From positions 320,846 to 384,845 of the forward strand of contig CAVZJT010000007.1 of NCBI GenBank assembly GCA_963775655.1: a stretch of DNA of 64,000 nucleotides, written 5' to 3'. Shown in pieces: positions 1,513 to 62,145 of this stretch; position 1 is the stretch's first letter, and the number at the start of each line of letters is the position of its first letter. Source of the DNA: an uncultured Actinomycetota bacterium (lineage in GTDB: Bacteria > Actinomycetota > Actinomycetes > Mycobacteriales > QHCD01). Made by a program: the position numbers and the translations under genes. The notes beneath the pieces were generated by a model. The model was not told where the DNA came from. It ran no database searches and saw only the letters and a list, made by a program, of their open reading frames with translations.

Positions 1513-1867
1513 ATGGCGAGCAGCTGGTACACCGTGGTCATCGATTCGCACGACATCCACGCGCAGGCGCGCTTCTGGGCGGAGGTCCTCGGCTACGACA
1601 TCGTCTTCGAGATCGAGGAAGAGGTCGCCGTCGCGAAGAACGACCACACCTACCCGGGTCTGGTCTTCGTCCCGGTGCCCGACGACGAAGACGATCAAAA
1701 ACCGGCTGCACATCGACCTCAATCCCGACGACCAGAACGCCGAAGTGGAGCGGCTCCTGGCCCTCGGTGCCACCCGCGCGGATGTCGGGCAGGGCGACAA
1801 GCCCTGGGTCGTGCTGGCCGACCCAGAAGGCAACGAGTTCTGCGTGCTCACGGCTCGCGATCGGTAA
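1513..1867 (+). pseudogene. VOC/glyoxalase-like family protein, reading frame broken once (about 1675-1700)
   Basis: The N-terminal half (MASSWYTVVIDSHDIHAQARFWAEVLGYDIV..) is in frame 1. The C-terminal half (..KNRLHIDLNPDDQNAEVERLLALGATR..WVVLADPEGNEFCV) is in frame 2. The switch lies near the A5 run at 1695-1699 and behaves as one extra base. Confidence 0.6.
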
Positions 1868-3896
1868 CCGCCACCATCTGGTGCCCGTCGATCCGCGGAA
1901 CGGTGAAGTCGACGCGCGATCCGTTTTGGCGGAACGGCAGATCGACGCCCTGCGGCTCGAGTCGGATGCTTTTGGCCGCCGTGGTGGTGCGCAGTGACAC
2001 GTCCACGTCGAAGAGCGGCAGCACGTCTTCCACCGTGTCGAACTCCGTACCCCGCCGTTCGGGGATGTAGTGCAGCAGGTGCACGACGTCACGCTGCTGC
2101 TGCGGCTGGCTGGTCACCGACACCTCGAGCGTGCTCGGACCGTCGTGCCGAAGCACGGGATCAGGCAGCAGCAGTCCGATCGCAGCGAGGAAGGCGGTCT
2201 TGATCCATCGCGGCGCGTTGGTCTCGTACTGCGTGTGGATCGGATGACAGAAATAGACCACGCGGCCGCGCCGGATCACGGCGGGTCCGGCGGTCTCGCC
2301 GGTCGACGGGGCCTGCAGGTGGGAGATGTAGTGCTCCCAGGTGCGGTCGAAGTAAGGCAGCACGAGGTCGGCGAGGACCTCCGTGTCGGGGCCGGCGGTA
2401 ACGTCGAGACCGCGGATGTACATCGGATGCTCGACCGCGGGCAGCCGGTCGGTGAGCGCGGGTCGCGGCCGGAGGTATTGGCAGAAGTCGTGCCGGGCGT
2501 AGACCTTTCCGCGGGCCGGCTCGCCGCGGGAGTCGCGCGGGCCGTCGGACTCGACCTGGACGCCCCACTCGTCCAGGGCGAAGTCGTCCCGCTCGACCGC
2601 CAGTCCCGACTCGTAGCTGGCGACGACTGATCCGCCGTCGTCCAGGAAGCGGCGGAGCTTCGCCGCGAGGTCGGGCGTCAGCCGGATGTGGTCGGGCAGG
2701 ACCAGTAGCCGGTAGCGGGCCAGGTCGGCGGCGGAGTCGATGACGTCGAACTGGTGACCGCCCTCGACGAGCATCCGGACCGCACCCTGGATGCCCGGTG
2801 GCAGGTTCAGCACTCCGCCGCCGAGGTTTTCCTCCGGGTTGAAGACGCCGATGTCCACCCGGGGAAGGGCTTGCGCGCACCACGGCTCCTTGCGCTCCAC
2901 CTGGGCGTAGACGTCGCCGACGACCCGGTAGGTCTCCGGATCGAGCACGCCTCTCGGGTGCAGCTGGTCGCCGATCGAACATCCCGCGCCCTGGGCGAGC
3001 ATCCGGAACACCTCGTACTCCAGGGCCGCGGGGTTTTTCGTGGAATGGAAGTCGCCCCACGTCGTGTGGAACTTGCCGGTGGTGCCGACCACGTCCGGGC
3101 CGAGGGTCCGCGCGTAGCGCCCGGTGACCGGGAAGTACATGTAGCCCCAGCCGCCGCTCGGCAGCGTCTCGAGCTCGAACTGGGTGTACGCCGCGGCGAC
3201 CGTGCGGTGCCGGAGACCTATGTGGCCGCCGTTGTAGGTCACCGGACAGCCGGGTTGGATCGACCGGACGAAGGCCGAGAGTTCGAGTTCGAAGTCGTTG
3301 ACGGTCTCCACGCCGAACTGCTCCACCCGGCGGGCGTCGGACGGATCCCATCCGCGGTCGCGCATTCCCTGCTGGCAGTAGCCGCACACGCAGTGGTCGG
3401 GGCGGATGAAGTCGAAATACAGTCCGTCGACCGGGAGCGAGGCGAGGATCTCCGCCGCGTGCTCCTTCATGAAGTCGCGGAACGGCGAGTTCAGGCACAG
3501 CTTGCGGTAGAAACCGGCTTCGAACGGCGGGGTTCCCTCGAGTCGACCATCGGCCAGCACGATTCGCCATTCGGGGTGCGCCTTCACGGTCAGGTCGTCC
3601 CATTGCACCGTCGTGTAGATCGGCACCCGGATCCCCAGTGCGTGGCAGGCGGCGATCTGCTCGACGAGCAACGGGCGATCGAGCGTCGGATGCTTGCGGT
3701 CGGCAAGGTGCGCGCTGTCGTAGTAGACCCAACCGTGGTGGCAGCGGGCGAAACACAGCACGGAGTTGACGTGCGCGTCGGCCAGGGTCTTCGCGAATCC
3801 GGCCGGATCGAAGTCCGCTCCGACGTCGGGGATGAGGCCGGAGGTATGGAAGTCGAGGTGGATCTGCCGGAGAACGGTGGATGACGAGGCTGGCAC
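1848..3896 (-). CDS. Putative glycoside hydrolase (GHL6-type TIM-barrel N-domain plus beta-galactosidase-trimerisation-like domain)
   Basis: 682-aa ORF with a GTG start at 3896. The N-terminus (IHLDFHTS..NSVLCFARCHHGWVYYDS..HP..) and the cysteine-containing stretch CVCGYC recall the hypothetical glycosyl hydrolase 6 family. Confidence 0.55.
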   Translation of the reverse strand: MPASSSTVLRQIHLDFHTSGLIPDVGADFDPAGFAKTLADAHVNSVLCFARCHHGWVYYDSAHLADRKHPTLDRPLLVEQIAACHALGIRVPIYTTVQWDDLTVKAHPEWRIVLADGRLEGTPPFEAGFYRKLCLNSPFRDFMKEHAAEILASLPVDGLYFDFIRPDHCVCGYCQQGMRDRGWDPSDARRVEQFGVETVNDFELELSAFVRSIQPGCPVTYNGGHIGLRHRTVAAAYTQFELETLPSGGWGYMYFPVTGRYARTLGPDVVGTTGKFHTTWGDFHSTKNPAALEYEVFRMLAQGAGCSIGDQLHPRGVLDPETYRVVGDVYAQVERKEPWCAQALPRVDIGVFNPEENLGGGVLNLPPGIQGAVRMLVEGGHQFDVIDSAADLARYRLLVLPDHIRLTPDLAAKLRRFLDDGGSVVASYESGLAVERDDFALDEWGVQVESDGPRDSRGEPARGKVYARHDFCQYLRPRPALTDRLPAVEHPMYIRGLDVTAGPDTEVLADLVLPYFDRTWEHYISHLQAPSTGETAGPAVIRRGRVVYFCHPIHTQYETNAPRWIKTAFLAAIGLLLPDPVLRHDGPSTLEVSVTSQPQQQRDVVHLLHYIPERRGTEFDTVEDVLPLFDVDVSLRTTTAAKSIRLEPQGVDLPFRQNGSRVDFTVPRIDGHQMVAVTDREP

Positions 3897-4112
3897 GGCG
3901 GCACTCCTTCGCGGCTTGCGTCACTCCTCGCAAACCGTGGCGCAGCGAGGTACCGCACAGATGCTATGGGCGTTAGATTTCCCGGACAAGAACGCGCCGG
4001 GCGCCGGGTCCGGGCTCGGAGGGCGGATCGGTGATGCAGGCGGAGGAGCGCGCCGAGCGTGCGCTCGAGGCGCGGCGGGCCACCGTCGTACTGAATCGCC
4101 GCGACGTCGATC

Positions 4113-4355
4113 GTGCAGGACGTTCGGGTCGTCGCGGCCGGGCGCGATCCTTCGGAACTGTCCGCGGCCGGGATCCGGCGGCTGCCGTCGTCGGCTGCGG
4201 AGGCGCTGGATCATCTCTCCGCGTCCGGCATCCTGCGCGACGCCATGGGCGACCCGCTCTTCGAGGCCTTCCTCGCCGTACGCCGGGCCGAGATCGACGC
4301 GGCGGCCGAACGGAGCCCGGAGGACGTGGTCGCCGCCACGAGGTGGCGTTACTGA
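4113..4355 (+). pseudogene. Remnant of the last ~75 codons of a glutamine-synthetase-family gene
   Basis: Translation ..GIRRLPSSAAEALDHLSASGILRDAMGDPLFEAFLAVRRAEIDA..SPEDVVAATRWRY* matches only the extreme C-terminus of GlnA-family proteins. An in-frame stop at 4092-4094 and the divergent gene at 3896 leave no room for the catalytic domain. Confidence 0.55.
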
Positions 4356-5491: not shown

Positions 5492-5500
5492 CCCGCCCCG

Positions 5501-5521
5501 CTCCTCCTCCTCCTCCTCCTC
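5501..5521. repeat. (CTC)7 trinucleotide microsatellite
   Basis: Seven perfect CTC units read directly, abutting the hairpin at 5523. Confidence 0.9.
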
Positions 5522-5522
5522 C

Positions 5523-5581
5523 CCATGATCAAGAGGGGATTCCGGTACGAAACGCCGTACGAAATCCCCTCTTGATCATGG
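5523..5581. repeat. Long palindrome, family 2 (CCATGATC..GATCATGG), between convergent genes
   Basis: Perfect 19-nt arms CCATGATCAAGAGGGGATT / AATCCCCTCTTGATCATGG around a 21-nt loop containing CGAAACGCCGTACG. It is related to the element at 50721-50798. Confidence 0.85.
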
Positions 5582-5599
5582 AGGTTTGAAGAGGGGGAG

Positions 5600-9649: not shown

Positions 9650-9671
9650 GGGCTCGCACCGGCGTGTCGTG

Positions 9672-9773: not shown

Positions 9774-10658
9774 ATGAACCGGACCGTCCGCGACCGCCTG
9801 GCCACGGGCCGGCCGACGTTCTCCTTCGAATTCTTCCCGCCCAAGACGCCGGACGGCGAGCGGGCCCTGTGGCGGGCGATCCGCCAACTCGAGCCGCTGC
9901 ACCCGTCGTTCGTGTCCGTCACCTACGGCGCGGGCGGCACCACCCGCGCCGGCACCGTGCGGATGACCGAGCGGATCGCGACCGACACCACGCTGCTCCC
10001 GCTGGCCCACCTCACCGCCGTCAACCACTCCGTCGCCGAACTCCGCCAGGTCATCGGGCAGTACGCCGACGCCGGTGTACGCAACGTGCTGGCGCTGCGC
10101 GGCGATCCGCCGGGAGACCCGCGGGCCGAATGGGTCAAGACGCCCGAAGGGCTCGAATACGCCGAAGAACTCGTCCGGCTGGTCAAGGCGCACGGTGACT
10201 TCTGCGTCGGAGTCGCCGCCCACCCGCAGGGGCATCCGCGGTCGACCAACCTCGACGTCGACGCCCGGCAGTTCGTCGCCAAATGCCGGGCCGGCGCCGA
10301 CTTCGCGATCACCCAGATGTTCTTCTACGTCGAGGACTACCTGCGGCTGCGCGACCGGGTCGCCGCGCGCGGCTGCGACATCCCGATCATCCCGGAGATC
10401 ATGCCGGTCACGAACATCCGGCAGATCGAGCGGTTCGCGGTCTTGTCCGGTGAAAGCTTTCCCGCCGACCTCGCCGCGCGGCTGCAGGCCGTCGCCGACG
10501 ATCCCGCCGCGGTGCGCGAGATCGGCATCGCGGCCGCGAGCGAACTCTGCGACAAGCTGCTCGCGGCGGGCGCTCCTGGCCTGCATTTCCTGACCCTCAA
10601 TCGGTCCACGTCGACCCGCGAGGTGTGGGGCAACCTCAACCTCGACGCGCGGGTCTGA
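9774..10658 (+). CDS. metF: Methylenetetrahydrofolate reductase
   Basis: The sequence [36 protein letters not shown].. is classic MetF. The start is ATG 9774; the upstream part of ORF 7860..10658 is antisense junk. Confidence 0.9.
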
Positions 10659-12235
10659 CCCAGCCCGGCCACCACGACCGGCGCGGGTCCCGGTCGGCGA
10701 GCACGATGCCGGCGGCCGTCCGCCCGCTCGCGCCGAAGACGCCGCCACCCGGATGCGTCGACGCGCCGGTGAGATAGAGGTTGCGTACGCCGGGAACGCG
10801 ATGCCGGGCGAGCTCGGGCAGTGGCCGCAGCCCGAACATCGACTCCACCGTCATGTCGACGTGCATCACGTTGGCCCGGGGGAGTGCGAGCTCGCGTTCG
10901 ATCTCCTCCGGCGTCTGCACGTGCACCTGCTCGACGGTGGCCGCGAAACCCGGCGCGGCCCGGTCGACCTCACCGATCAGCCGGTCGGCCTCCGCCCGGG
11001 CGATGTCGCTCCATCGGCGGCCGTCGGCCAGCGCGTAGGGGTGCCACTGGCCCCACACGGAGACGTTGTGCCGCCCGGGCGGTGCGATCGTGTCGTCGAA
11101 CGCGGAGAAGGTCATCGCCAGAGCTGCCGGGCGCGCCGGCGGGCGCCCGGCCAGGAAATCGCCGTAGGCCGTGCGCAACGCACCACGATCCGGCGCGAGC
11201 AACTGCAGGGCGCGGTACGCCGAGTCGCCCTCGGCGCCCGGGTAGCGCGGCAGGTCGGTCGTGCCGAGCCGCACCACCATGCCGATACCCGAGCCGACTT
11301 TGATCTCGCCGATCCGGTGCTGCAACGCCGACGGGAGCGCGTCGCCGAGCAGGCCGAGCGTCTCGGTCACATGACAGCCGCCGACCACGGCGCCCGCGCG
11401 CAACACGTCGCCCGACGTCGTCCGCACGCCCCGGACCGCGCCGTCCTGCACGAGGATCGTCTCCGCACCGTCGCCGAGTCGCAGCGATCCGCCGTCGGCG
11501 AGCCAGGCGGGCGGCGAGCGCCTCGCTGAGCCGGCCGCTGCCGCCCCGCGGGTGCCCGGGAGCGCGTTTGTGCAGGAGCGCCAGCCAGCCGACCAGATCG
11601 GCCGTTCCGGTTTCGTGCGTCGGCGGGCCGGACTGCGATCCCATCCACGCCAACGCCGTCTTCAGGCGTTCGTCGGTGAAGTGCGCGTCGAGCAGCGCAT
11701 CGGCGCTGCCGAGGAACTGCCGCACCACCTCGCCGTTCGTGGCGCCGGCGCCACGGCCGGCCCGCCACAATGTGCGGCCGATCCGCAATGGTGCCGGTTC
11801 GCCCGCGAACGAGGCGAACACGTGCTCGTTACGCCGCCCCCAATCGGTGATGAACCGGTGATAGGCCTCCGCGTCGGCCGCCCCGCACACCGCCGCGATC
11901 GACGCGCAGGTGCGGTCGAGGTCGACCCAGAAGGTGATCGCGACCTGTTCGCCGGCCGGTGTCCAGAACGGCGCGAAACCCCACGGATCGAGGTCGTCGT
12001 AGACCAGGCCGTACGACGCCAGGTCGAGCTCTTCGACGATGCCGGTGTGTCGGATCATCACGTGGGCGCTGGAGCCCCGATCGACGCGGTATCCGGGAAA
12101 CCGCTCCACGGTCGACACCGCGCCACCGACGACGGTGTCGCGTTCGATCACCTCGACGTCGAGGCCAGCCCGGGCGAGATAGCAGGCCGTGACAAGGCCG
12201 TTGTGCCCGGCGCCGATGACGACGACATCAGGCAT
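10636..12235 (-). pseudogene. CrtI-family NAD(P)/FAD-dependent oxidoreductase, frame broken once (about 11496-11503)
   Basis: The N-terminal part starts at ATG 12235 (MPDVVVIGAGHNGL..GGAVST..HPRGGSGRLSEALAARLA). It continues in the next frame as DGGSLRLGDGAETILVQDGAVRGVRTTSG... down to 10636. The break behaves as one extra base. Confidence 0.7.
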
Positions 12236-12788: not shown

Positions 12789-12791
12789 CGG

Positions 12792-14219: not shown

Positions 14220-15850
14220 TCCTCATCCGCGCGGGCGACGTAATCGGCGAACGATTCGTCACCTTTGCAGCGTTCTTTATAGCCCCGCAGTACCCGTTCG
14301 ATGTAGTCGGCGGTGTCGCTGGCGGCGACCCGCAGACCCCGGAACTTCCGACCGAGTGTCGGATCCGCCCCGAGTTGTCCGCCTAGATGTATCTGGAAAC
14401 CGTCGACGTCCTCGCCGTTATTCCCCCGCATGACCATTCCCTTGAGGCCGATGTCGGCGACCTGGAAACGCGCACAGGAGTTCGGGCAGCCGTTGACGTT
14501 GATGGTCACCGGCGTGTCGAAGTCGGGCAGCCGGCGTTCCAGCTCGTCGACGAGCCAGCTGGCGCGGCCCTTGGTCTCCACGAGCGCCAGCTTGCAGAAC
14601 TCGATGCCGGTGCAGGCGATCGTCCCGCGCCGGAACGCACTCGGCCGCACAGCGAGCCCCTCACCCTCCAGGGCGGTGACCAGCGCCTCGACCTGCTCCT
14701 CGGGTACGTCGAGGACCACCAGCTGCTGCTGCGCGGTGGTGTTGACCCGGCTGCCGCCGTACTCGTGCGCGAGGTCGGCGATGCGGGAAAGCTGGGTGCC
14801 GCTGGTGCGCCCGGACCGCAGCGCGAAGCCCACCGAGTAACGCCCGTCGGCCTGACGCTGCACGCCGAGGTGGTCGCGCGGGCCGGTCGGAGCCGCCGGA
14901 GCCGGACCGTCCGGGAGCGGGGAGTCGAGGTAGTCGGACTCGAGGATCTCCCGGAACTTCTCGGGACCCCAGTCGGCCATGAGGAACTTCAGCCGGGCCC
15001 GGTTGCGCGACTTGCGGTAGCCGTAGTCGCGGAAGACTGCGGTCACGCCGCGCCAGGTCTCCACCAGCCGGTCGACCGGCACGAAGGCGCCGAGCCGGAC
15101 GGCGAACCGCGGATTTGTCGACAGGCCGCCACCGACCCACAGGTCGTAGCCGGGTACGCCGTCCGGGCCGGTCACGCCGACGAAGGCGACGTCGTTGATC
15201 TCGTGGTTGGTGCAGTGCCGGCCGCAGCCGGAGACCGAGGTCTTGTACTTGCGCGGGAGGTTGGAGTATTCGGGGTCGCCGACGACCAGGTCCGACAGCT
15301 CGTTGATCTTCGCGGTCGCGTCGAGGACCTCGTCCTCGGCCACCCCGGCGAGCGGACAACCGAGCATCACCCGGGGCGTGTCGCCGCACGCCTCGGTGGT
15401 GGACAACCCGACCGCTTCGAGGCGCTGCCAGATCTCGGGCACGTCCTCGATCCGGATCCAATGCAGCTGGACGTTCTGCCGGTCTGTGACGTCGGCCACG
15501 TCGCGGCCGTACTCCTTGGCGATCCCGGCCACGGTGGACAGTTGCCGGGACGAGAGCCGGCCACCGTCGATGCGGATCCGGAGCATGAAGAACTCGTCTT
15601 CGAGCTCGTGCGGCTCGAGTACGGCGGTCCGGCGACCGGGGATCCCGGCGGCCCGCTGGGTGTAGAGGCCGTACCAGCGGAACCGGCTGGAGAGATCGGC
15701 CGGATCGATGCTGGCGAAGCCGTTCTTCGAGTAGACGTCGATGATCCGCTGTCGCACGGCGAGGCCGTCGTCGTCCCGCTTTACGCGTTCGTTGGCGTTG
15801 AGCGGCTCACGGTGGCCCAGCGCCCACTGGCCCTGTGCTGTCGATGGCAT
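14207..15850 (-). CDS. sirA: Ferredoxin-dependent sulfite (nitrite/sulfite) reductase
   Basis: 547 aa containing ..RFRWYGLYTQR..FMLRIRIDGG..TEACGDTPR..CTGIEFCKLA..CPNSCAR.., which are siroheme/4Fe-4S signatures. Confidence 0.9.
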   Translation of the reverse strand: MPSTAQGQWALGHREPLNANERVKRDDDGLAVRQRIIDVYSKNGFASIDPADLSSRFRWYGLYTQRAAGIPGRRTAVLEPHELEDEFFMLRIRIDGGRLSSRQLSTVAGIAKEYGRDVADVTDRQNVQLHWIRIEDVPEIWQRLEAVGLSTTEACGDTPRVMLGCPLAGVAEDEVLDATAKINELSDLVVGDPEYSNLPRKYKTSVSGCGRHCTNHEINDVAFVGVTGPDGVPGYDLWVGGGLSTNPRFAVRLGAFVPVDRLVETWRGVTAVFRDYGYRKSRNRARLKFLMADWGPEKFREILESDYLDSPLPDGPAPAAPTGPRDHLGVQRQADGRYSVGFALRSGRTSGTQLSRIADLAHEYGGSRVNTTAQQQLVVLDVPEEQVEALVTALEGEGLAVRPSAFRRGTIACTGIEFCKLALVETKGRASWLVDELERRLPDFDTPVTINVNGCPNSCARFQVADIGLKGMVMRGNNGEDVDGFQIHLGGQLGADPTLGRKFRGLRVAASDTADYIERVLRGYKERCKGDESFADYVARADEEWLA

Positions 15851-35937: not shown

Positions 35938-36702
35938 ATGTCGGCCTCCGACGCCCTGGTCACGGGTGCGACCGGGCAGCTCGGGCCCGCGCTCGTCGCC
36001 GCCCTGCGTGAGCGGGGTTACGGCGTCCGTGCGCTCTCGCGGCGTCCGGGCACGGATCGGGTGGTGGCCGATCTGTCCACCGGCGGCGGCCTCGCCGAGG
36101 CCGTCGACGGGTGCCGGGTGGTGGTGCACGCCGCCACCGACCCGCACGACACCGAGGCCGTCGACATCGAGGGCACCGAGCGGCTCGCCGAGATCTGCAA
36201 GGCCGCCGGGGTCGAGCACCTCGTCTACGTGTCGATCGTCGGTATCGACCGCAATCCGATCGGCTACTACCGGGCGAAGCTCAGCGCCGAGCGACGGGTC
36301 GCCCGGTCCGGGGTCCCGTACTCGATCGTGCGCGCCTCGCAGTTCCACTCGCTCGTGGCGACGATGCTGGGCAAGGCCAGACGCGGACCGGTCTGCCTCG
36401 TCCCGGCCGGCTGGGAGATCGAGCCGGTCGCGACCGTCGACGTCGCCCGGCACCTGGCCGACCGGGCGGCCACCGGACCCTCCGGTGCGGTGGGCGAATT
36501 CGCCGGCCCGGAGCGGCTCGGGTTGCGCGATGTCGCCCGGACCTGGCTCGCCGCCGGGGGCGGTCGTGCTGCCGTGGTCCCCGTCCCGATCCCGGGCAAG
36601 GCGGCCCGGGCCTTCCGCATGCGCAGCAACATCGCGTCGCCGGATGCGGCCCGCGGGCAGGTCACCTGGGCCGACTGGCTATCCCAGAATGCGGGATTGT
36701 GA
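35938..36702 (+). CDS. NAD(P)H-binding NmrA/SDR-like protein
   Basis: Contains LVTGATGQLG....HLVYVS..YY.AK...E. Confidence 0.7.
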   Translation: MSASDALVTGATGQLGPALVAALRERGYGVRALSRRPGTDRVVADLSTGGGLAEAVDGCRVVVHAATDPHDTEAVDIEGTERLAEICKAAGVEHLVYVSIVGIDRNPIGYYRAKLSAERRVARSGVPYSIVRASQFHSLVATMLGKARRGPVCLVPAGWEIEPVATVDVARHLADRAATGPSGAVGEFAGPERLGLRDVARTWLAAGGGRAAVVPVPIPGKAARAFRMRSNIASPDAARGQVTWADWLSQNAGL

Positions 36703-46985: not shown

Positions 46986-48243
46986 GTGGATCCGGGGGTC
47001 GCGGCTGCGGTCGCGGACGCGCACCGTCGCGAGTGGGCATTCGTGCTCGCGGCGACGGTGCGCGTGACCCGGGATCTTGACCTGGCCGAGGAATGCGTGC
47101 AGGACGCCTACGCCCAGGCCCTGGTGACGTGGGGCGACCGGGGGATACCGGACAACTACGGGGGTTGGCTCACCACCGTCGCCCGGCGCAAGGCGCTGGA
47201 TCTCCTCCGCCGCGACGCGACGCTCCGACGCACCCTTCCGCTGCTGCTCGACGATCAGGTGGAGGCCGGCCCGGACGACGCCGCCTCGACCGAGCACGAG
47301 ATCGTCGACGACCGGCTGCGGCTGGTCTTCACCTGCTGTCACCCGGCGATCGCCCAGGAGGCGCAGGTCGCGCTGACCCTGCGCCTGCTCTGCGGACTGA
47401 CCACCGCGGAGGTCGCCCGTGCCTTCCTGGTCGGTACGCCGACCATGGCCGCCCGGCTCACCCGGGCCAAGAAGAAGATCGCGGCGGCCCGCATCCCCTA
47501 CCGGGTGCCGCCCGCCGAGGAACTGCCGGCCCGCATCGACTCGGTTCTCACCGTCGTACATCTGCTCTTTTCCACCGGCCACACCGCGCCCGCGGGCGCC
47601 GACCTGATCCGCCGCGACCTGGTCGAGCGCGCGCTCGACCTCGCGCGGATGCTCCGGACGCTGCTGCCCGCCGACCCCGACGTGGCCGGCCTGCTGGCGC
47701 TGATCCTGCTCACCGACGCGCGCCGCGCCGCCCGCATCGGCGATGACGGCCGCATGCTGCTGCTGGCCGAGCAGGATCGCACCCGCTGGGACCGGGGCGC
47801 GATCACCGAGGGCGTCGGCAATGGTGCGCGAAGCGCTCCGGAGCCGGCCACCCGGGCGGTTCGCGCTGATGGCCGCGATCGCCGCCGTGCATTCCGAGGC
47901 GCCCAGCTGGCCGGACACCGACTGGCGCGAGGTGGTGGCGCTCTACGACCTGCTGGTCGCGCTCTGGCCGTCCCCGGTCGTCGCGCTCAACCGGGCCGCC
48001 GCCGTCGGGCTCGCCGACGGACCCGCGGCCGGTCTCGCCGCGCTGGACGCACTCGCCAACGAGCCGCAACTCGCCGGCTACAGCTACCTCGCCGCGGCAC
48101 GGGCGGACTTCCTGCGCCGGCTCGACCGCCCCGGGGAGGCGAAAGAGGCCTACGAGGAGGCTCTGCTGCTGACCGAGAACGCCGTCGAACGGGAGTTCCT
48201 CACCGCGCGGGTCGACGAGCTCGACCGCAGCCGGCCCGATTAA
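46986..48243 (+). pseudogene. ECF-type sigma factor with long C-terminal extension (YciI-associated class), frame broken once (about 47812-47822)
   Basis: Region 2/4 motifs (..EECVQDAY..WLTTVARRKALDLLRR..LTTAEVARAF..TMAARLTRAKKKI) run up to ..DRGAITEGVG. The sequence continues in the next frame as MVREALRSRPPGRFALMAAIAAVH... The break behaves as one extra base. Confidence 0.7.
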
Positions 48244-48281: not shown

Positions 48282-48954
48282 ATGATGATCTCGCAGCACT
48301 GGCCGCTCTTCGATCTCCGGCTCCGCACGCCCCGGCTGGAGTTGTGCGTGCCGTCGCTCGAGCAGCTGGGTGACGCTGGCGGACCTCGCCGTCGACGGCA
48401 TCCATGATCCGGGGTTCATGCCGTTCCTGCAGCCGTGGACCGACCAGCCGCCGCAGGAGCGCGCCCGGGGCACGCTGCAGTACCACTGGGGGCAGTGGGC
48501 CGCGTTGGTCTCCGGAGCGGTGGAGCCTCGAACTCGTCGTCGTTGCGGGACGGGTCGGTCGTCGGCACCCAGAGCGTGGGCGGCAACGAACTTCGCCGTG
48601 CTCCGCGAGGTCGGCACCGGCTCGTGGCTCGGCCGGAAGTTCCAAGGTGAGGGGATCGGCACCGAGATGCGGGCCGCCGTGCTGCACCTGGCCTTCGCCG
48701 GGCTCGGCGCGCAGTGGGCCTACTCCGGCGCGTTCGCCGACAACGCCGCGTCGCTCGGCGTCTCCCGCAAGCTCGGCTACGTCGAGAACGGGTACTCGCG
48801 TCAGGTACGGCGCGGCGAGCCCGCCGACGAGGTCGGGTTCCGGATGAGTCGCGCCGACTGGGAGAGCCACCGCCGTACGCCGGTGGAGATCGACGGGCTC
48901 GAACCGTGCCTGCCGATGTTCGGTCTCGACGGGGCCGAGGAGACGGCGCGGTAG
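48282..48954 (+). pseudogene. GNAT (RimJ/RimL-like) N-acetyltransferase with four frame breaks
   Basis: The conserved peptide can be followed through frames 0,1,2,0,1. The segments are MMISQHWPLFDLRLRTPRLEL.. / TLADLAVDG..YHWGQWAA / SPERWSLELVVV / RDGSVVGTQSVGGNE / [26 protein letters not shown]... The breaks lie near 48368, 48500, 48542 and 48589. Confidence 0.6.
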
Positions 48955-48992: not shown

Positions 48993-50078
48993 ATGAGCCA
49001 GCAAGTGCGTGGAGTCGTCGCTCGGAGCAAGGGCGCGGCGGTCACGACCGAGACGATCGTGATCCCCGACCCCGGCCCCGGCGAGGCCGTGGTGCGGGTG
49101 CAGGCGTGCGGTGTCTGTCACACCGACCTGCACTACCGCGAAGGCGCGATCACCGACGACTTCCCGTTCCTGCTCGGCCATGAGGCGGCCGGAATCGTCG
49201 AGACGGTGGGCGACGGCGTCGACACCGTCGCACCGGGCGACTACGTCGTCATCGCCTGGCGGGCGCCGTGCGGGCACTGCCGCGCCTGCCTGCGGGGCCG
49301 GCCGTGGTACTGCTTCGACAGCCTCAACGCCAAGCAGCCGATGACGCTCGCCGACGGCACACCGCTGACCGCCGCCCTCGGCATCGGCGCGTTCGCCGAC
49401 AAGACGCTCGTCGCGGCCAAGCAGTGCGTGCCGGTCGACCCGGCCGCGCGGCCCGAGGCGGCCGGCCTGGTCGGGTGCGGCGTGATGGCCGGCTACGGCG
49501 CCGCCGTCAACACCGGGGGAGTGCGGCAGGGCGACACCGTCGCGGTCATCGGCTGCGGCGGCGTCGGCGCGGCGGCCATCGCCGGGGCGTCGATCGCGGC
49601 CGCCCGCACGGTGATCGCGGTCGACGTCGACCAGGCCAAGCTCGAGACGGCCCGCAAGTTCGGCGCCACCCACACCGTCGACGCCGGGTCCGAGGACGTC
49701 GTGTCGCGTATCCGCGAACTCACCGGCGGCTTCGGCGCCGACGTCGTCGTGGAGGCGGTCGGCCGCCCGGAGACCTACAAGCAGGCCTTCCTCGCCCGCG
49801 ACCACGCCGGGACGCTCGTGCAGGTCGGCGTACCCGATCCGACAATGCGGGTCGACCTCGGCATGATCGATCTCTTCGGCCGCGGCGGTGCGCTGAAGTC
49901 GTCCTGGTACGGCGACTGCCTGCCCACCCGCGACTTCCCGACCTTGATCAACCTCTATCTCGCCGGCCGGCTCGACCTCGACGGCTTCGTCAGCGAGACG
50001 ATCGCCCTCGACGAGGTGGAACAGGCCTTCGACAAGATGAAGGGCGGCAAGGTGCTCCGCTCGGTCGTCGTGCTGTGA
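48993..50078 (+). CDS. mscR: S-(hydroxymethyl)mycothiol dehydrogenase (Zn-dependent class III ADH-like)
   Basis: Contains ..[24 protein letters not shown]....C... ATG 48993 follows GGAGG; 48978 is an alternative start. Confidence 0.8.
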
Positions 50079-50696
50079 TCCGCGCCGAACGCGTGGTGAC
50101 GTCGGGGATCTTCTCCCTGGACGGGCAGGACTTCGAGGTCGACAACAACGTCTGGCTGGTCGGCGACGACGATGAGGTCGTGGTGGTCGACGCCGCGCAC
50201 GACGCGGGCCCGATCCTCGACGCGATCGAGGACCGGCGGGTGCGGCTGATCGCCTGCACGCACGCGCACAACGACCACATCAACGCCGCGCGCGACGTGC
50301 AGGCGGCGACCCGGGCGCCGATCGCGGTGCATCCCGCCGACCGGATGCTCTGGGACGCCGTCTATCCGGATGCCGCGCCGGACGCCGATCTCAGCGACGG
50401 GCAGGAGATCCCGATCGCCGGGTCGACGCTGACCGTGCTGCACACCCCGGGCCACTCGCCGGGTTCGGTGAGCCTGCGCGGCGGGCGGCTGCTCTTCTCC
50501 GGCGACACGCTCTTCGCCGGCGGACCGGGCGCGACGGGCCGGTCGTACTCCGACTTCGACACGATCATCGCCTCGATCCAGGACCGGTTGCTCACACTGC
50601 CGCCGCGACACGATCGTGCACACCGGCCACGGCGACGACACGTCGATCGGCAGCGAGGCGCCGCACCTGGCCGACTGGATCGCCCGCGGCCACTGA
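50075..50696 (+). pseudogene. MBL-fold metallo-hydrolase (partner of mscR; S-formylmycothiol hydrolase-like), frame broken once (about 50600-50607)
   Basis: GTGA overlap with mscR. The sequence THAHNDH..HTPGHSPGS..SGDTLF runs up to ..IQDRLLTLPP. The conserved end DTIVHTGHGDDTSIGSEAPHLADWIARGH* is in the next frame. The break behaves as one extra base. Confidence 0.7.
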
Positions 50697-50720: not shown

Positions 50721-50798
50721 TCCCCTCTTTCCATGATCGTGATCGGATCCGTACGGCGTTTCGCGGCTATTTCCGATCACGATCATGGAAAGGGGGGA
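50721..50798. repeat. Long palindrome, family 2 (27-nt arms, 1 mismatch)
   Basis: TCCCCTCTTTCCATGATCGTGATCGGA - 24 nt - TCCGATCACGATCATGGAAAGGGGGGA. The loop contains CCGTACGGCGTTTCG, the reverse complement of the loop core at 5548-5561. Confidence 0.85.
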
Positions 50799-55302: not shown

Positions 55303-55374
55303 CCGGCAGCATTGGGGTATGGGGTAATTGGCAGCCCGACTGGTTCTGGTCCAGTTAGTCTAGGTTCGAGTCCT
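55303..55374 (+). tRNA. tRNA-Gln (CTG)
   Basis: A manual cloverleaf was built. The acceptor pairs TGGGGTA with TACCCCA. The anticodon stem is ACTGG/CCAGT with loop TTCTGGT. The T-arm is CTAGG-TTCGAGT-CCTGG. No CCA is encoded. Confidence 0.9.
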
Positions 55375-55396
55375 GGTACCCCAGCGCCGTTCACTG

Positions 55397-55469
55397 CATC
55401 ACCTAGGGCCCCGTCGTCTAGCGGCCTAGGACACCGCCCTCTCAAGGCGGCGGCGCCGGTTCGAATCCG
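55397..55469 (+). tRNA. tRNA-Glu (CTC)
   Basis: The acceptor pairs GGCCCCG with CGGGGCT. The anticodon stem is CCGCC/GGCGG with loop CTCTCAA. The T-arm is GCCGG-TTCGAAT-CCGGT. Confidence 0.9.
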
Positions 55470-55679
55470 GTCGGGGCTACCCTGCACGACCGCCCGTGTT
55501 TCCCAGCCGAGTCCCGGCGGGACGCGGGCATTTTCCGTATCCGGGGCCGGTTCGGCTCTCCCGGCCGCCGAGATCGTCCCGTAGTGCCGTTTTGCCCCAA
55601 AGGGCAGAACGGTCACCTAGCCTTACACTATGTCATCAACTAAATACTCAGCGTCACCAAACTCCGTCTGCGCGAGGCG

Positions 55680-56852: not shown

Positions 56853-56862
56853 CGCACCCCGG

Positions 56863-57595
56863 TCACCGCACGATGCGGCCGCGGCGCAGGGCAAGCACGC
56901 CGGCAGCGACACCGAGCACGGCGATCACCAACGCGATGATCGACAGCGTGAGCGCCGTACCGGAGCCGGAGGCCGCCGGCGCCGAGGACGACCACGTGGG
57001 ACTCGCCTCCGGCGGTGCCCGTCTCGGGCGTCGCTCCCGCCGGGCTGAGTGTCAATGTGGGCGCGGGGTGCTCGGGTTCGGGTGCACCCGGTGCCGCGAC
57101 CTGGATCCACCGCACGACGGTGCCGTTGCTGTAGGTCTGTAGCGCAGGGAACCGGAGCGACGTCGTCTTGGGCAGCGGCTCGGCGGAGATCGAGAACTCG
57201 CCGAACTCGCCGGGCTTGATGGCACTCGCCGCGGAGTCGGCCTTCCACGCGATCTGGGTCACCGCAGTGGTGACCGGTCCGTCGTCGGTCTGGATCGGCT
57301 TGGCCAACTTCGCCGTCGTCACCCGGAAGGACCATCCCGGCTGCGGCTGCACCGCCACGCTGGCGATCGGGGTGGCCCGCGGGAGGGCGACGCGCAGCGC
57401 GGTCGTCGAGGCGTTGTCCACCTCCGTCGGTACCCGGAAGGTGATCTTGGCGGACCCGCCCTGGGTCGGGGTGTCCGCATTCACCGTGACATGCGCGAAG
57501 GCGGGTACGGCGGCGACCACCACCAAGGTCAGTGCGGCGAGAGCGACCAGCCCGAGCCGGGTGAGCGAGCGGGCGGGTTTGCGATGTGCGGCCAT
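56863..57595 (-). pseudogene. YcnI-like (DUF1775) copper-binding protein, frame broken once (about 56965-57005)
   Basis: Signal peptide ..PAFA followed by HVTV.. (N-terminal His). The body is conserved up to ..TGTAGGES. The expected C-terminal anchor SGSGTALTLSIIALVIAVLGVAAGVLALRRGRIVR* is in the next frame. The break behaves as one extra base. Confidence 0.7.
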
Positions 57596-57630
57596 GAGCC
57601 CTTCCTTCGGAAGCCTGTCCTGGATCGGTG

Positions 57631-59415
57631 TCACTGCACGGGAATGGCGACGCGGAAGGTGGTCGCATCGAATGCGGAGGTCTGCACGCTGACATCGAGG
57701 TCCCATCGGCCGGACACGGCGAAACTCGTCATGGCCATCGCCTGCCCGGCGGCGGTGCGGGTGAAGTGCACCGGCACGGGACCGACGTGGTGTGCCGGAA
57801 GGGACAACGCACCGGTGACCTGCTGAATGGGTTGCCGCCGACCGGATGGCGTGTCGGCGCGTAGCTGGATCATCGCCATACCGGTGCGCGCCGGATCGAC
57901 CGTCACCTGCAAGCGGGTCGACGTTGCGGCGACGGTGGTCTGGAAGTGCGGTGCATAGGTCTCCTTCGCCTGTGCGGTGTTGACCAGGACCGTGCTCACC
58001 ACCAGCACCGCCAGGCCGATCACGACCTCGCCGACCAGGCCGCGGCGCAGCCCCGCCAGCCGGATGCGTGCCGGGTCCGCGTGCCGCGTCGTCGGGGGCG
58101 GGTCGACGACCGGCGGCACCGGACCGTCGGCGTGCGCGACGAGGCGCGGGGCGAACCACCGCACGGAGTTGGTGTCGAGGTAGTGCCGGTGCACCCAGCG
58201 CCGGGCCAGGTTTCCGAGTCCGATCAGGACGAGGAAGCCGCCCATCTTCGCCAGCAGCAGCCGGCCGTAGACGGTGTCGACCAGAGCCGGCCAGGACCCG
58301 ACCTCACGCCAGGACTGGAAGACGCCGGTCGCCGCGATCAGGATCACGGCGGTGAACGCCAACCGCGAGTAGCGGGGGAGGACGACGGCCAGGTCGGCGG
58401 CCCGCGACCGGACGGCGAGGCAGTCCACGAGGAGCGCCAACCCGCCTATCCAGACGGCGACCGCGGCCAGATGTACGACGTCGCTGGTCAGCGTCAACCC
58501 GCTCAGCGTGTCGTCGGCGGCGTGCCCGGAGACCGCGAAGGTCACCAGGATGGCCACCGAGACGGCGAGCCCGGCGCCGAGCAGCCACCGCGGTGGTTGC
58601 CGCTGCGCCGGGCGGGCCGCGACACCGGCGGTCACCGGACGCCGGGAGAAGGCGAGCGCCAGCAGCGCCGCGAGCATCAGCAGCAAGGTGATCCGGGCCA
58701 TCGACGCCGTCCCGAACCGGGTCTCGATCGTGGTCGACAACAGCCCGGAATCGAACAGCCGTCCGAGCCCGGCACCGGCTCCGTAGGGACCCTGCAGGAG
58801 CAGCCCACCAGCCGTACCCGCGACCAGCAGGCCCCATCCGGTCCACACCAGGACCCGGGCCCGACGCACCCGCCGGCCCGCCGGCCACAACGCGAACAGC
58901 ACCACCGCGCTGCCGAGGCCGAGCACGATCCCGACGAATCCGGCCAGCCGCGTCGCGCCCAGCAGTACGCCGACGGTGGTGCTCCCGCCGCCACTGCTCC
59001 GCGCCGTACCGGCGACGGCGCTGGGATGTCCGACCGAGAAGGTGAAGCCGCCGGAGACGGGGTGCGAATCGGCCGAGATGACTCGCCAGGTGACGGTGTA
59101 GGTGCCGGGACGCAATGCCGGCCGGAGCGAGACGCCGACCGAGTCGGCGCGGCCGTCGGGATGATCGACCGCACCGTGATCGACCCGGCGCAGCCGGTCG
59201 TCGTACACCCGTACGGCGCCGGGCGGGACGATCACCGGCTCGCCGAAGCGGAGCGCGACCGCCTGCGGTGCGGTGCGGACGACCGAGCCGTCGGACGGGG
59301 TGGTGCTCTCCAGTACCGCGTGCGCGCCGGCCGGGCGGCTGACCGCGCCCACGGCGATCGCGCTACCGGCACCGACCAGCAGCAGCGCCGCGGCGGCCCG
59401 CCCGCGGAGCCGGCG
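57631..59415 (-). CDS. CopC-CopD fusion protein (YcnJ-like copper transport/resistance protein); the 5' boundary is unresolved because the ORF continues upstream to 59781
   Basis: The signal-like segment RRLRGRAAAALLLVGAGSAIAVGAVSRPAGA is followed by HAVLESTTPSDGSVV..YTVTWRVISADSHPVSG (CopC). Then come about 8 TM helices (CopD) and a C-terminal soluble domain. There is no ATG/GTG/TTG immediately upstream of the signal segment. The nearest in-frame GTG/TTG codons lie about 27 codons upstream, inside the anti-sigma TM4 region (CVLLW). Confidence 0.7.
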   Translation of the reverse strand, partial: RRLRGRAAAALLLVGAGSAIAVGAVSRPAGAHAVLESTTPSDGSVVRTAPQAVALRFGEPVIVPPGAVRVYDDRLRRVDHGAVDHPDGRADSVGVSLRPALRPGTYTVTWRVISADSHPVSGGFTFSVGHPSAVAGTARSSGGGSTTVGVLLGATRLAGFVGIVLGLGSAVVLFALWPAGRRVRRARVLVWTGWGLLVAGTAGGLLLQGPYGAGAGLGRLFDSGLLSTTIETRFGTASMARITLLLMLAALLALAFSRRPVTAGVAARPAQRQPPRWLLGAGLAVSVAILVTFAVSGHAADDTLSGLTLTSDVVHLAAVAVWIGGLALLVDCLAVRSRAADLAVVLPRYSRLAFTAVILIAATGVFQSWREVGSWPALVDTVYGRLLLAKMGGFLVLIGLGNLARRWVHRHYLDTNSVRWFAPRLVAHADGPVPPVVDPPPTTRHADPARIRLAGLRRGLVGEVVIGLAVLVVSTVLVNTAQAKETYAPHFQTTVAATSTRLQVTVDPARTGMAMIQLRADTPSGRRQPIQQVTGALSLPAHHVGPVPVHFTRTAAGQAMAMTSFAVSGRWDLDVSVQTSAFDATTFRVAIPVQ

Positions 59416-60052
59416 GGGCGACGCCGTCGTCGGATTCCGCTTGCGCCGGACGGGAGCGGAACCGTGGCCGGACTCGCCACGGGCGATCAGCCACAGCAAC
59501 ACGCACCCCGCCACCGCGAGCAGATGCGGCGCCTCCTCGCTCACCTGGGTGCGCCCGGCGGCGAGATCGATCCCGGCGGTGGCGACCAGCGCGACGGCGG
59601 CGACACCCACGAGCGGCGCCATCCCGGCCGCGCGGGCGGGACGGAAGACCGCGACGAGGAAGCCGACCGCCAACGCGAGGTCGAACGACCCGAGCTCGTG
59701 CGCCACGTGCATCGGCGTCGAGTGGTCGTGGCCGAAAACGAGCACCGGGATCGTGACCGCGAGCTGCGCCGCCGCGACCACCGCCAGGCCGATCCGGGCC
59801 AGCCGCCGACGGCGCGACCGGACCGGGTCGTCGGCGGTGAGAACAGCGGCCGCGATGTCCTCGGCGCGGTCGGGTACGTCGGGCGTCGCGAGCGAGGCGG
59901 GCCCGCCGGGTCACCGCGACCGCGGCCGATCGCCATTCCCGGCAGGCGACGCACGTCTCGAGGTGCCCGCGCAGGTCGCGCAGCGGCACCGCTGGGTCCG
60001 CACCGTCCAGCTGCGCCGAGGTCGCCTCGCGCGCCTTCTCACACGTCAGCAC
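59416..60052 (-). pseudogene. zf-HC2 anti-sigma factor with multi-TM C-terminal region. The frame is broken once (about 59885-59892) and no stop separates it from CopC-CopD.
   Basis: The N-terminus from ATG 60052 (MLTCEKAREATSAQLDG..LRGHLETCVACREW) carries the H-x3-C-x2-C motif. After the break it continues as TPDVPDRAEDIAAAVL..RLARIGLAVVAAAQLAVTIPVLVFGHDHS..HELGSFDLALAVGF... Confidence 0.5.
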
Positions 60053-60153
60053 ATGCAGATAGTCGTCCGACGGCGTCGTGCGGTTCCCACCGACCGGCGG
60101 GTGGGTGGGGGTGCCTCCCGCCGTTGCGCCGCGCTCCGCTTACGGTGGCTCCC

Positions 60154-60756
60154 GTGGATCCGCTGACCGTGGTGCTGTCAGCGGCTGGCCGTGGGGATCA
60201 CCAGGCGCTCGTATCGTTCATCCGGGACACCCAGGCAGATGTGTGGCGTTTCGCCGCGCACCTCGTGGACCCGCAGAGCGCCGACGATCTCACCCAGGAG
60301 ACCTACCTGCGCGCCGTACGTGCGGCGCCGTCCTTCGAGGGTCGCTCGTCCGCGCGCACCTGGCTGCTGGCGATCGCGCACCGCGTCTGCATGGACGAAC
60401 TGCGCGCGCGGACCCGGCGCCGGCGCCGCGACGCCCTGCTGCCGTGGGTCGGTCCTCCCCGGGTCGAACCCGACGTCGCGGGCGAGGTCACCGCGACCGC
60501 GCTCCTCGCTGATCTCGACCTCGACCGGCGTACCGCCTTCGTGCTCACCCAGCTGATCGGGCTGTCCTACGAGCAGGCGGCGCAGGCGTGCGGCTGCCCG
60601 GTGGGCACCATCCGGTCCCGCGTCGCGCGGGCGCGGGCCGACCTGGTGCAGGCGCTGGACGCCGACCATGTCGTCACCCTGCGTCCGGTCCGGTCCCGTC
60701 GGTCGACGCCGGACCGGCCCGTAGCTCCACGCAACACGCTCCGGGCCGAGGGTTGA
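60154..60756 (+). CDS. sigC: ECF sigma factor, SigC-like
   Basis: Contains ..VWRFAAHLVDPQSADDLTQETYLRA..RSSARTWLLAIAHRV.. and ..CGCPVGTIRSRVARARADL. To my recollection this closely parallels M. tuberculosis SigC. The start is ambiguous (TTG 60124, GTG 60145 or GTG 60154). Confidence 0.7.
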   Translation: MDPLTVVLSAAGRGDHQALVSFIRDTQADVWRFAAHLVDPQSADDLTQETYLRAVRAAPSFEGRSSARTWLLAIAHRVCMDELRARTRRRRRDALLPWVGPPRVEPDVAGEVTATALLADLDLDRRTAFVLTQLIGLSYEQAAQACGCPVGTIRSRVARARADLVQALDADHVVTLRPVRSRRSTPDRPVAPRNTLRAEG

Positions 60757-61424
60757 GGATGGCCTGCACGGTCTGGGCGTGCAACCCGCCGAGAAAGCCG
60801 GCTCAGGAAGGCGTGGTTGATGCCGCAGACGACCTGCGGCGCCTGCGCCGCCAGCGGGTGGAACGGGCAGTTCCGTAACCGCACACACAGCGGTTCGTCG
60901 CGGGTCGGGTCGAAGCCGCGCTCCCGGAGTACGCGCTCGGCAAGGGTGAGGGCGCGTTCGGCGCCGAGCCGGCCGGCGCGGCTGCGGTGCCGCTCCTCGG
61001 CGCCCAGGGTCTCGCCGTGGCTGCGCGCCACCTGCATCGCGGACTGCATCGCGCTCCCGCCGGCGGGCTCGGCGACGAGCGCGTCGACCAGGATGTCGGA
61101 CAGGTCCTCGTGCCGGCGGGCCGGAATGCTCACCCGGACGTCGAGGTCGGTCGGCCGGTAGGTCTTCGGGGTGCGCCCGACCCGGCCGGGTCGCTCCGGC
61201 TCGTCGTACGCGGCCCGGAGCAGGCCCACGTCGACGAGCTTGTCCAGATGGAATGCGGCCAGCTTGCGGGAGATCCCCACGGCGCTCGCCGCGTCCTCCC
61301 GGGTGACGGGTCGGCCGGCATCGCGGATGTAGGTGAACATGCCGCGCCGCAGGTCGTCGTCGAGTGCCGCGACCGCCCGGATCGACGCTCTCGAATCCGG
61401 TCCGGATCCGGCGTACCCGATCAA
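60674..61424 (-). pseudogene. Winged-helix (ArsR-like) transcriptional regulator with C-terminal NCPFH..C..CC domain, frame broken once (about 60798-60803)
   Basis: The sequence ..RRGMFTYIRDAGRPVTREDAASAVGISRKLAAFHLDKLVDVGLL.. runs up to ..VCGINHAFLS. The conserved end GFLGGLHAQTVQAILNPRPGACCVELRAG..* is in the next frame. The break behaves as one extra base. Confidence 0.55.
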
Positions 61425-61529
61425 CCATCACCGACCCAGGTTACGCCTATCTCGATGTGCGAAACCCTTCAACGAGCAGTATTCCTCTTCCACTTGACCG
61501 GGCCGCCGGAATATGACCAAGATAATTGG

Positions 61530-62145
61530 GTGAAAACAGCCGAGCTTCCCACGGTCCGCCCGGATCTGCACGTGCTTCCGCAGCCGGACCAGGTCGACCT
61601 CGTTGCGGCGGAGCGGGCGGCCGAGGCGTTTCTGCGGGCGCTCGGTGTGGCCCCGGACACCGAGTCCCTCCGCAACACCCCGGCCCGGATGGCCCGCGCG
61701 TACGCCGAGTTGTTCACCCCGCGGCCGTTCGACCTGACGACGTTCCCCAACGACGAGGGCTACGACGAACTCGTCCTCGCCCGACGGATTCCGCTCCGGT
61801 CGGTGTGCGAGCACCATCTGCTGCCGTTCATGGGGGTCGCGCACGTCGGCTACCTGCCGGGGGAGCGGATCCTCGGGCTGTCCAAGCTCGCCCGGGTCGT
61901 CGAACGCTGCGCGTCGCGGCCGCAGGTGCAGGAACGGCTCACCAAGCAGGTCGCCGAGTGGCTCGACAAGCCGGCTGCGGCCGCGCGGCGTCGGCGTCGT
62001 GATCGAGGCCGAACACACCTGCATGACGCTGCGCGGTGTCCAGGCGGCCGGATCGAGCACGGTCACCTCGACATTGCTCGGCACGCTGCGCGACGACGCA
62101 CGCAGCCGGCAGGAGTTCTTCGCCCTCTCCGGCGTACACGCCTGA
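61530..62145 (+). pseudogene. folE: GTP cyclohydrolase I (FolE type 1), frame broken once (about 61968-61973)
   Basis: The sequence ..[30 protein letters not shown]...GLSKLAR.V......[10 protein letters not shown] runs up to ..EWLDK. The conserved end [23 protein letters not shown]...* is in the next frame. The break behaves as one extra base. Confidence 0.75.

Follow-up and report, generated by a model that had tools for sequence, protein, structure and literature searches.

Uniform single-base insertions that split ten conserved genes of an uncultured actinobacterium probably represent a systematic assembly artefact and not gene decay

The window analysed in this study, i.e. the whole stretch of 64,000 nucleotides, carries roughly 58 genes, ten of which are disrupted, and one further gene contains an internal deletion. 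Two assemblies served as the main references: the short-read metagenome-assembled genome GCA_036497565.1, whose loci L083, L086, L087 and L089 tile positions 1–62558 of the window with 92–94% nucleotide identity, and the sister assembly ERZ25039463 (contig_86001, with Flye-style contig names; L001) with 87–89% nucleotide identity. Using the intact orthologues from both as tblastn queries, we found each of the ten genes split into at least two adjacent reading frames, and the matches at the breaks formed collinear pairs which either skipped one base of the window or spent one too many. The first-pass annotation had listed 13 such breaks, all of which were recovered by tblastn and gapped DNA alignments as one extra base each, and a fourteenth insertion was detected in addition.

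The first affected gene (1513–1867, + strand) codes for a VOC protein, whose orthologue of 117 amino acids is intact in L087 and contains the Pfam domain Glyoxalase_6. Residues 1–57 matched in frame 1 and residues 56–116 in frame 2, with an overlap of the matches around position 1683, where a C unlike either neighbour is inserted (cccgaCgacg, + strand). Once this base is removed, the ORF is complete and 40 nt around the site agree with the relative without any mismatch, which no other single removal achieves. The second gene (10636–12235, − strand) codes for a CrtI-like FAD amine oxidase with 532 amino acids in the relative and an intact orthologue in L087/L089 (Pfam Amino_oxidase). Residues 1–245 matched at 12235–11501 and residues 246–532 at 11499–10639, and the inserted base is an isolated A on the + strand at 11501 (gcgAgcc). 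The gene for a PQQ-type glucose/sorbosone dehydrogenase (GSDH) lipoprotein (31279–32509, − strand) appeared in two frames by tblastn, with overlapping matches and a junction within 32201–32337. DNA alignments placed one extra base at 32315–32318 (acccGGGCtg), where it may be assigned either to a G of GGG or to the C, and the same +1 shift was obtained against three independent assemblies containing the intact gene (L083, L084 and L085; 391–409 amino acids, Pfam GSDH).

A second group of genes starts with that for a YciI-linked sigma factor (46986–48243, + strand; Sigma70_r2, r4_2 and DUF6596), which is intact in L001 (416 amino acids), L086 (399 amino acids) and the further assembly L092 (414 amino acids). 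Its tblastn junction at 47816|47818 coincides with an isolated C at 47816 (gggcgtCggca, + strand). It is followed by a GNAT gene (Acetyltransf_3; 48285–48954, + strand), which is intact in L001 and L092 (221 amino acids) and in L086 (233 amino acids) and shows four net +1 shifts within 215 nt, with the same pattern against L001 and L086. These consist of an isolated G at 48375 (gtgacGctgg), one extra base at 48504–48506 (gccgcGTTggt), a net +1 shift at 48543–48557, which may be aligned as +1/−1/+1 or as one base inserted into TTG plus substitutions, and one extra A at 48589–48590 (acgAAct; aligned at 48589), all on the + strand. The gene for a metallo-beta-lactamase-fold (MBL) hydrolase (50075–50696, + strand; 206 amino acids in relatives, intact in L001, L086 and L092) is interrupted at 50602|50604 according to tblastn by one extra C at 50603–50604 (gccgCCgcg, + strand; aligned at 50603).

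The YcnI gene (DUF1775; 56863–57595, − strand), whose product has 243 amino acids in nine other assemblies, showed a junction at 56993|56991 against L001 and two overlapping matches against L086; an isolated A is inserted on the + strand at 56991 (gacgAcca). Next to it lies a gene for a fusion of an anti-sigma factor (zf-HC2), a membrane part, CopC and CopD (57631–60136, − strand; 808–838 amino acids in relatives). The orthologue in L001 has 838 amino acids with a faint zf-HC2, CopC and CopD, and those in L086 and six cluster mates have 808. Here, four bases (59894–59889) stand for one residue, and the inserted base is an isolated G on the + strand at 59890 (gtcgcGagc); after repair, the N-terminus contains the motif HLETCVAC. 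Two insertions affect the gene for an ArsR-like HTH_20 regulator (60674–61428, − strand; 250 amino acids in L086). One is an isolated C on the + strand at 60802 (gccggCtca), corresponding to a tblastn junction at 60801|60799. The other is the fourteenth insertion, missed by the first-pass annotation and recognised by alignment to L086 and three-frame translation: an A as read on the + strand, corresponding to a T in the coding orientation, at 61415, uniquely placed at codon 5, which cuts ATG-GTT-GAT-CGG (MVDR) from the remainder of the gene. The repaired protein starts with MVDRDAGSGPDS, compared to MVDRDAGSAPDS in L086. Finally, the folE gene for GTP cyclohydrolase I (61479–62145, + strand), which is intact in L001 (221 amino acids) and L086 (192 amino acids), is broken at 61967|61969 by one extra A at 61968–61969 (cgacAAgcc, + strand; aligned at 61968).

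The uniform polarity claimed by the first reading was borne out at every site, with 14 insertions vs. 0 deletions in genes, and an unbiased scan of the alignments with the relatives tiling positions 1–62558 revealed no frameshifting deletion in any gene. For the 13 sites listed initially, an exclusive occurrence of insertions has a probability of P = 1.2 × 10−4 at even odds and of P = 0.007 at an insertion share of 68%, the value known from mutation-accumulation lines of Mycobacterium smegmatis (PMC4938668). The reported clustering is equally real, because ten of these 13 breaks fall within 14.2 of 62.5 kb (binomial P = 5 × 10−5). Removing 14 single bases, one per site, was sufficient to regain ten complete ORFs with terminal stops only, and none of the ten repaired ORFs contains an internal stop.

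A comparison with orthologous loci of close genomes had been proposed as a check, and all ten genes turned out to be intact in GCA_036497565.1. They are also intact in JGI and Logan contigs, L001 and L092, and the orthologues are plain uninterrupted ORFs in at least five relatives. In the public record, the frameshifted proteins come solely from the 884-kb contig of the window itself, including a 280-aa MBL and a 237-aa folE product, while nine other YcnI proteins have 243 amino acids throughout and six full-length CopCD proteins 808. The extra bases are present, uniform in polarity and private to this assembly. The closest relatives available represent a sister species (92–94% nucleotide and 92–98% amino acid identity) and not the same strain, and very recent real insertions could escape this comparison. 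The cluster mates of nine window proteins, all with 88–99% amino acid identity, included no relative of the same species. A scan of genome contigs with a MetF query yielded nothing closer than 72% amino acid identity, and a scan of metagenome contigs with the repaired GNAT query nothing closer than 67%.

The inserted bases do not share an obvious context. The initial suggestion that several breaks lie in short homopolymers or GC runs is only partly right. The GSDH site alone lies in CCCGGG, and the homopolymer part does not hold; the C inserted into the VOC gene (GACGAC, third base) lies 18 nt upstream of an AAAAA run and not inside it. Eight of the 14 inserted bases are unlike either neighbour, three lie in runs of 2 nt and three are ambiguous, so at most six touch a run of 2–3 nt, and runs of at least four bases are not involved at any of the 14 sites. 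Because of these isolated bases and the missing longer runs, slippage and phase variation do not fit. The six homopolymers of at least six bases in the window were not among the indel sites found relative to the relatives, and inspection by eye, which covered the 14 sites of the window as well as those of L001 (see below), revealed no shared sequence or methylation-type motif. Private substitutions are not elevated near the insertions (three observed vs. 3.0 expected within 5 nt; seven vs. 5.8 within 10 nt), which counts against a patch of poor raw-read quality and gives no support to a mechanism by which both alleles were kept. Scans for Rfam families and tRNAs provided nothing bearing on the breaks.

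The broken genes carry no evolutionary signature of inactivation. After repair, their dN/dS values are 0.088–0.224, compared to about 0 to 0.33 for intact neighbours, and GC3 remains high downstream of each break. With L001 as outgroup, seven of the broken genes have accumulated 182 private substitutions in the lineage of the window vs. 229 in the lineage of the intact L086, and the GNAT gene with its four shifts shows 29 vs. 42. The statement that these genes are possibly intact therefore gains support from the complete repaired ORFs, the intact relatives and the dN/dS values of 0.09–0.22.

The same type of lesion was observed outside the ten genes. Isolated intergenic 1-nt indels relative to GCA_036497565.1 occur in both directions, about 11 vs. 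7 by our own reading of the alignments. When the intergenic indels at 41–62 kb were polarised by L001, the private 1-nt events numbered about eight insertions and one deletion in the window, and about two insertions and one deletion in the short-read relative. In the patch at 47.8–62 kb, about one base in 900 would be a spurious insertion (16 in 14.2 kb). The sister assembly L001 itself contains about 15 private single-base insertions, mostly outside homopolymers, of which 13 affect serA, one ilvE and one an SSF transporter gene; each of these genes is uninterrupted in the window as well as in L086 and L092. No broken gene calls occur in the region in L092, which is a third assembly from this batch, so the error does not affect the batch uniformly. 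The only other lesion in a gene of the window is of a different kind: a glutamine-synthetase-like gene contains an internal deletion of 1.06 kb, and some real gene loss is therefore possible in this lineage.

Several readings that take the breaks as biological need to be weighed. In reductive genomes such as that of Mycobacterium leprae, pseudogenes show mixed lesions, stop codons, relaxed dN/dS and a loss of codon bias. The window resembles such decay in the many conserved genes interrupted within a short stretch, ten of roughly 58 plus one with an internal deletion, but differs in every other respect: all 14 lesions are +1 insertions, no premature stops remain after repair, dN/dS is not elevated, the window lineage shows no excess of substitutions, GC3 stays high behind the breaks, and the lesions are absent from all relatives. 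We consider an older, ordinary pseudogenisation highly improbable. Given the uniform +1 polarity, the broken genes might also still be expressed, through programmed +1 frameshifting on the ribosome, slippage during transcription or tracts subject to phase variation. Where functional genes are known to contain a +1 change of frame, as in prfB-type frameshifting or the reversible homopolymer frameshifts in glpK of M. tuberculosis, the sites are conserved in orthologues or lie in long homopolymers. In contrast, the orthologues of the ten genes are uninterrupted at the same positions in at least five relatives, inspection of the 14 sites revealed neither a shared sequence nor a homopolymer or slippery tract, and the GNAT gene would require four consecutive events, which makes this explanation hardly conceivable.

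A real and very recent burst of insertions, e.g. resulting from defective replication or repair in a lineage without MutS/MutL, which has just inactivated ten genes, is a more serious alternative, though still an unlikely one. An insertion bias is known for M. smegmatis, a high-GC actinobacterium lacking MutS/L, whose mutation-accumulation lines contained 141 insertions vs. 66 deletions (2.1 to 1; 32% deletions), and such a burst would agree with the genuine-looking 1.06-kb deletion in another gene and with a comparison resting on a sister species instead of a same-strain reference. However, even this bias leaves 13 of 13 insertions improbable (P = 0.007), and 79% of the small indels in these lines occurred in simple repeats, whereas at most six of our 14 touch a run of 2–3 nt and none a longer one. 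Moreover, the 207 small indels of the lines were accompanied by 856 substitutions (PMC4938668), a ratio predicting dozens of extra substitutions in the window lineage, where none are apparent (182 vs. 229). Neither four hits in 215 nt of the GNAT gene without extra substitutions nor a hit in folE are expected from a burst, and the lesions in serA and ilvE of L001 would require this unusual biology to exist in a second species as well. It is very unlikely that the extra bases are real and derive from an insertion-specific, non-slippage process common to L001, e.g. a template-independent addition of single bases during repair, acting so recently that substitutions have not yet accumulated. If true, such a mutational process would be at work in an uncultured soil actinobacterium and the related species represented by L001.

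Taking polarity, constraint, base context, intact relatives and the L001 lesions together, we agree with the first-pass annotation and infer, rather than observe, that the breaks are an insertion-biased consensus artefact and not a biological feature, with a probability of about 90%. The consensus would contain spurious single bases, 14 inside the ten genes and several more between genes, concentrated in a lower-quality patch at 47.8–62 kb. Each of them would shift the frame by +1 and lead the gene caller to report truncated or fused products. The 884-kb contig of the window belongs to a public metagenome-assembled genome and, judging from its size and the sister records, apparently stems from a long-read assembly whose contigs bear Flye-style names, and the errors may have originated in the consensus or polishing step of such a metagenome assembly, e.g. 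by low local depth or mixed strains. As in known consensus-indel artefacts, which are commoner in low-coverage metagenome bins and detectable by comparison with reference proteins, single-base indels would make intact genes look pseudogenic, and they occur exclusively in one assembly while its close relatives lack them. Consensus errors from Nanopore data are reported as mainly homopolymer-associated deletions (PMC12007338), and the long-read catalogue of Microflora Danica, assembled with Flye and one round of Medaka, was also checked for consensus indel errors (PMC12313526). The errors in the genes of the window do not follow the published Nanopore profiles (PMC12007338), as they are all insertions, mostly unlike their neighbours, free of substitutions and strongly clustered. 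We therefore rejected a typical Nanopore homopolymer error, given that deletions are lacking, eight of the 14 bases are isolated, no run of four or more is involved and the homopolymers of at least six bases are spared.

Because the signature is insertion-only, clustered, substitution-free and mostly outside homopolymers, a homopolymer-aware correction would miss the error. Its recurrence in the sister assembly may make tracing it useful for the maintainer of the pipeline, and core biosynthetic genes are among those affected (folE here, serA and ilvE in L001). Caution is advisable with highly contiguous deposited genomes containing such insertion patches, since truncated and fused proteins derived from them have already entered public protein collections. 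The breaks themselves would have no biological significance and represent an ordinary data-quality problem. The ten genes are almost certainly intact in the organism and should be annotated accordingly, including folE, the YciI-linked sigma factor and the copper-handling module, in which YcnI is joined by the anti-sigma/CopC/CopD fusion and the ECF sigma factor belonging to it.

The analyzed stretch consists of actinobacterial DNA of 72% G+C, and the closest relatives available for comparison represent a sister species rather than the strain of the window. Four overlapping loci (L087, L089, L083 and L086) of a MEGAHIT-assembled MAG (GCA_036497565.1, contig DASXJE010000018.1), hereafter the short-read relative, tile window 1-62558 at 92-94% nucleotide identity. 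Two sister assemblies provided the 622 kb contig L001 (ENA ERZ25039463, contig_86001), which is 87-89% identical in nucleotides to the window and syntenic with its part at 40.8-62.2 kb, and the 1.32 Mb contig L092 (ERZ25039539, contig_15010); additional relatives came from short contigs of JGI and Logan (L002, L084, L085, L088, L090 and L091). L001 and L092 are both very long contigs with Flye-style names, and from these sister records and the size of the window's own contig, which exact protein matches identify as one of 884,373 bp in NCBI and ENA, we infer a long-read origin for the latter.

Six-frame translation showed that each of the ten genes named as broken in the first-pass annotation runs on in the next frame, and tblastn searches with intact orthologous proteins yielded collinear matches in adjacent frames for all ten, with one window base in surplus at the junction. 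Gapped DNA alignments set the extra bases at 1683 (VOC protein), 11501 (CrtI-like oxidase), 32315-32318 (GSDH), 47816 (sigma factor), 48375, 48504-6, 48543-57 (net +1) and 48589 (all GNAT), 50603 (MBL hydrolase), 56991 (YcnI), 59890 (anti-sigma/CopC/CopD fusion, CopCD), 60802 (ArsR-like HTH regulator) and 61968 (folE). The thirteen breaks reported from the sequence alone thus all recur within a few bases of their proposed positions, and one +1 insertion was added to them at 61415, which removes the start codon and the first four codons (MVDR) of the HTH gene. Because the short-read relative spans window 1-62558, its alignment serves as an unbiased scan for indels; it revealed no frameshifting deletion in any gene over this range, so that the uniform +1 polarity claimed earlier holds with 14 insertions against 0 deletions in the ten genes. 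The reported concentration of ten of the thirteen breaks at 47.8-62 kb is likewise significant (14.2 of 62.5 kb, P = 5e-5). Frameshifted proteins are on public record from the window's own contig only (MBL, 280 aa; YcnI, 267 aa; HTH, 257 aa; folE, 237 aa; CopCD, 716 aa; GNAT, 194 aa), indicating that the breaks are present in the deposited assembly. The other YcnI sequences (n = 9) are 243 aa each and the full-length CopCD sequences (n = 6) 808 aa each.

The repaired CopCD gene, 57631-60136 (-), codes for a zf-HC2 anti-sigma N-terminus (HLETCVAC), a histidine-rich membrane segment, CopC and CopD, and its counterparts in relatives comprise 808-838 aa; the L092 gene call at this place is a 1001-aa CopC-CopD-DUF1775 fusion. 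The gene is divergent from an ECF sigma factor gene (60154-60756) and lies upstream of the YcnI gene (56863-57595), an arrangement that suggests a copper-sensing or copper-handling module. Between the MBL gene and cimA, we observed a 78-nt palindromic element (50721-50798) with 27-nt arms of 96% complementarity, a 24-nt loop and a G+C content below that of the flanking DNA. The window has a single copy, whereas L001 carries one at the equivalent place and a second one 3' of folE (L001 21204-21264).

Deleting one base per site restored ten complete ORFs with a terminal stop only. The dN/dS values of the repaired genes against the short-read relative were 0.088-0.224, compared to about 0-0.33 for intact neighbours. 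With L001 as outgroup, the two lineages are equally long (586 private substitutions in the window vs. 610 in L086), and seven broken genes carry 182 private substitutions in the window lineage vs. 229 in the L086 lineage, where they are intact. GNAT with its four shifts shows 29 vs. 42, and no excess of substitutions was seen up to 5 or 10 nt from the insertion sites. Since drift lasting long enough for four indels in one gene should leave many extra substitutions, and mutation-accumulation lines of M. smegmatis gained 856 substitutions alongside 207 small indels (PMC4938668), the missing surplus in the broken genes led us to reject real decay of any age. In the same lines, insertions made up 68% of the small indels, and 79% of the small indels fell in simple repeats (PMC4938668). 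Even under this insertion share, 13 insertions out of 13 would be rare (P = 0.007), and we regard very recent real insertions as improbable. The homopolymer context proposed earlier was the one part of the first-pass annotation not borne out: of the 14 inserted bases, eight differ from both neighbours, three lie in 2-nt runs, three are ambiguous and none belongs to a run of at least four, while none of the six window homopolymers of at least 6 bases coincides with an indel site. The orthologous loci of close genomes, a comparison recommended at the outset, are uninterrupted, and the insertion sites have no apparent sequence in common, which excludes programmed frameshifting, transcriptional slippage and phase variation; these and older pseudogenisation together retain a barely appreciable probability.

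Isolated intergenic 1-nt indels between the window and the short-read relative run in both directions (about 11 vs. 7), as natural divergence should give. After polarisation over 41-62 kb, about eight window-private insertions first counted as intergenic (42459, 46180, 46512, 48247, 48967, 55395, 55531 and the site at 61415 reassigned to HTH) face one deletion (52930), compared to about two and one in the short-read relative. The surplus of inserted bases therefore extends beyond genes, and the intergenic ones probably belong to the same artefact class. The spacer between the genes for tRNA-Gln(CTG) and tRNA-Glu(CTC) (55313-55481) contains the insertion at 55395; both genes are located downstream of gltX and have normal tRNA scores. 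In L001, serA contains 13 private single-base insertions inside 1.3 kb (L001 1869-3174, equivalent to window 42659-43954), ilvE contains one, and an SSF transporter gene contains one insertion and one single-base deletion (lesions outside serA at L001 5089, 568 and 84). Most of the L001 insertions are non-homopolymeric, and the window, L086 and L092 have intact copies of all three genes. Broken gene calls are absent from L092 over the region compared, suggesting that the errors occur in patches.

The window has further irregularities. About 1.06 kb is missing from the interior of a glutamine-synthetase-like gene at 4108-4137, a lesion unlike the insertions that is due either to a real deletion or to misassembly and leaves a remnant at about 4007-4352 (+) with residues 2-35 and 398-469 in different frames; the orthologue in GCA_036497565.1 has 469 aa, and the gene is also present in Logan contig L088. 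In the sulfite reductase gene (-), comparison with L089, L090 and L091 shows +1 and -1 shifts that are separated by 6 nt and compensate each other (15686-15692), with two codons changed and the frame preserved. A NAD-dependent epimerase-like ORF (35938-36702, 254 aa) has one stop before the end of its 257-aa L083 orthologue when projected onto it, apparently about three codons early, which looks like natural variation.

Judged from these sequence comparisons, the extra bases are probably an assembly artefact (probability about 0.9), in agreement with the first-pass annotation and supported by the ORF repair, the dN/dS values, the private substitutions and the L001 lesions. Published Nanopore consensus errors are chiefly homopolymer-associated deletions (PMC12007338), whereas the signature of the window is insertion-only, mostly non-homopolymeric, substitution-free and clustered. 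It also differs from the Microflora Danica long-read catalogue, assembled with Flye and one Medaka round, in which low coding density is mainly found in low-coverage, low-GC, homopolymer-rich MAGs (PMC12313526). The breaks are not a biological feature, and all ten genes are best regarded as intact.
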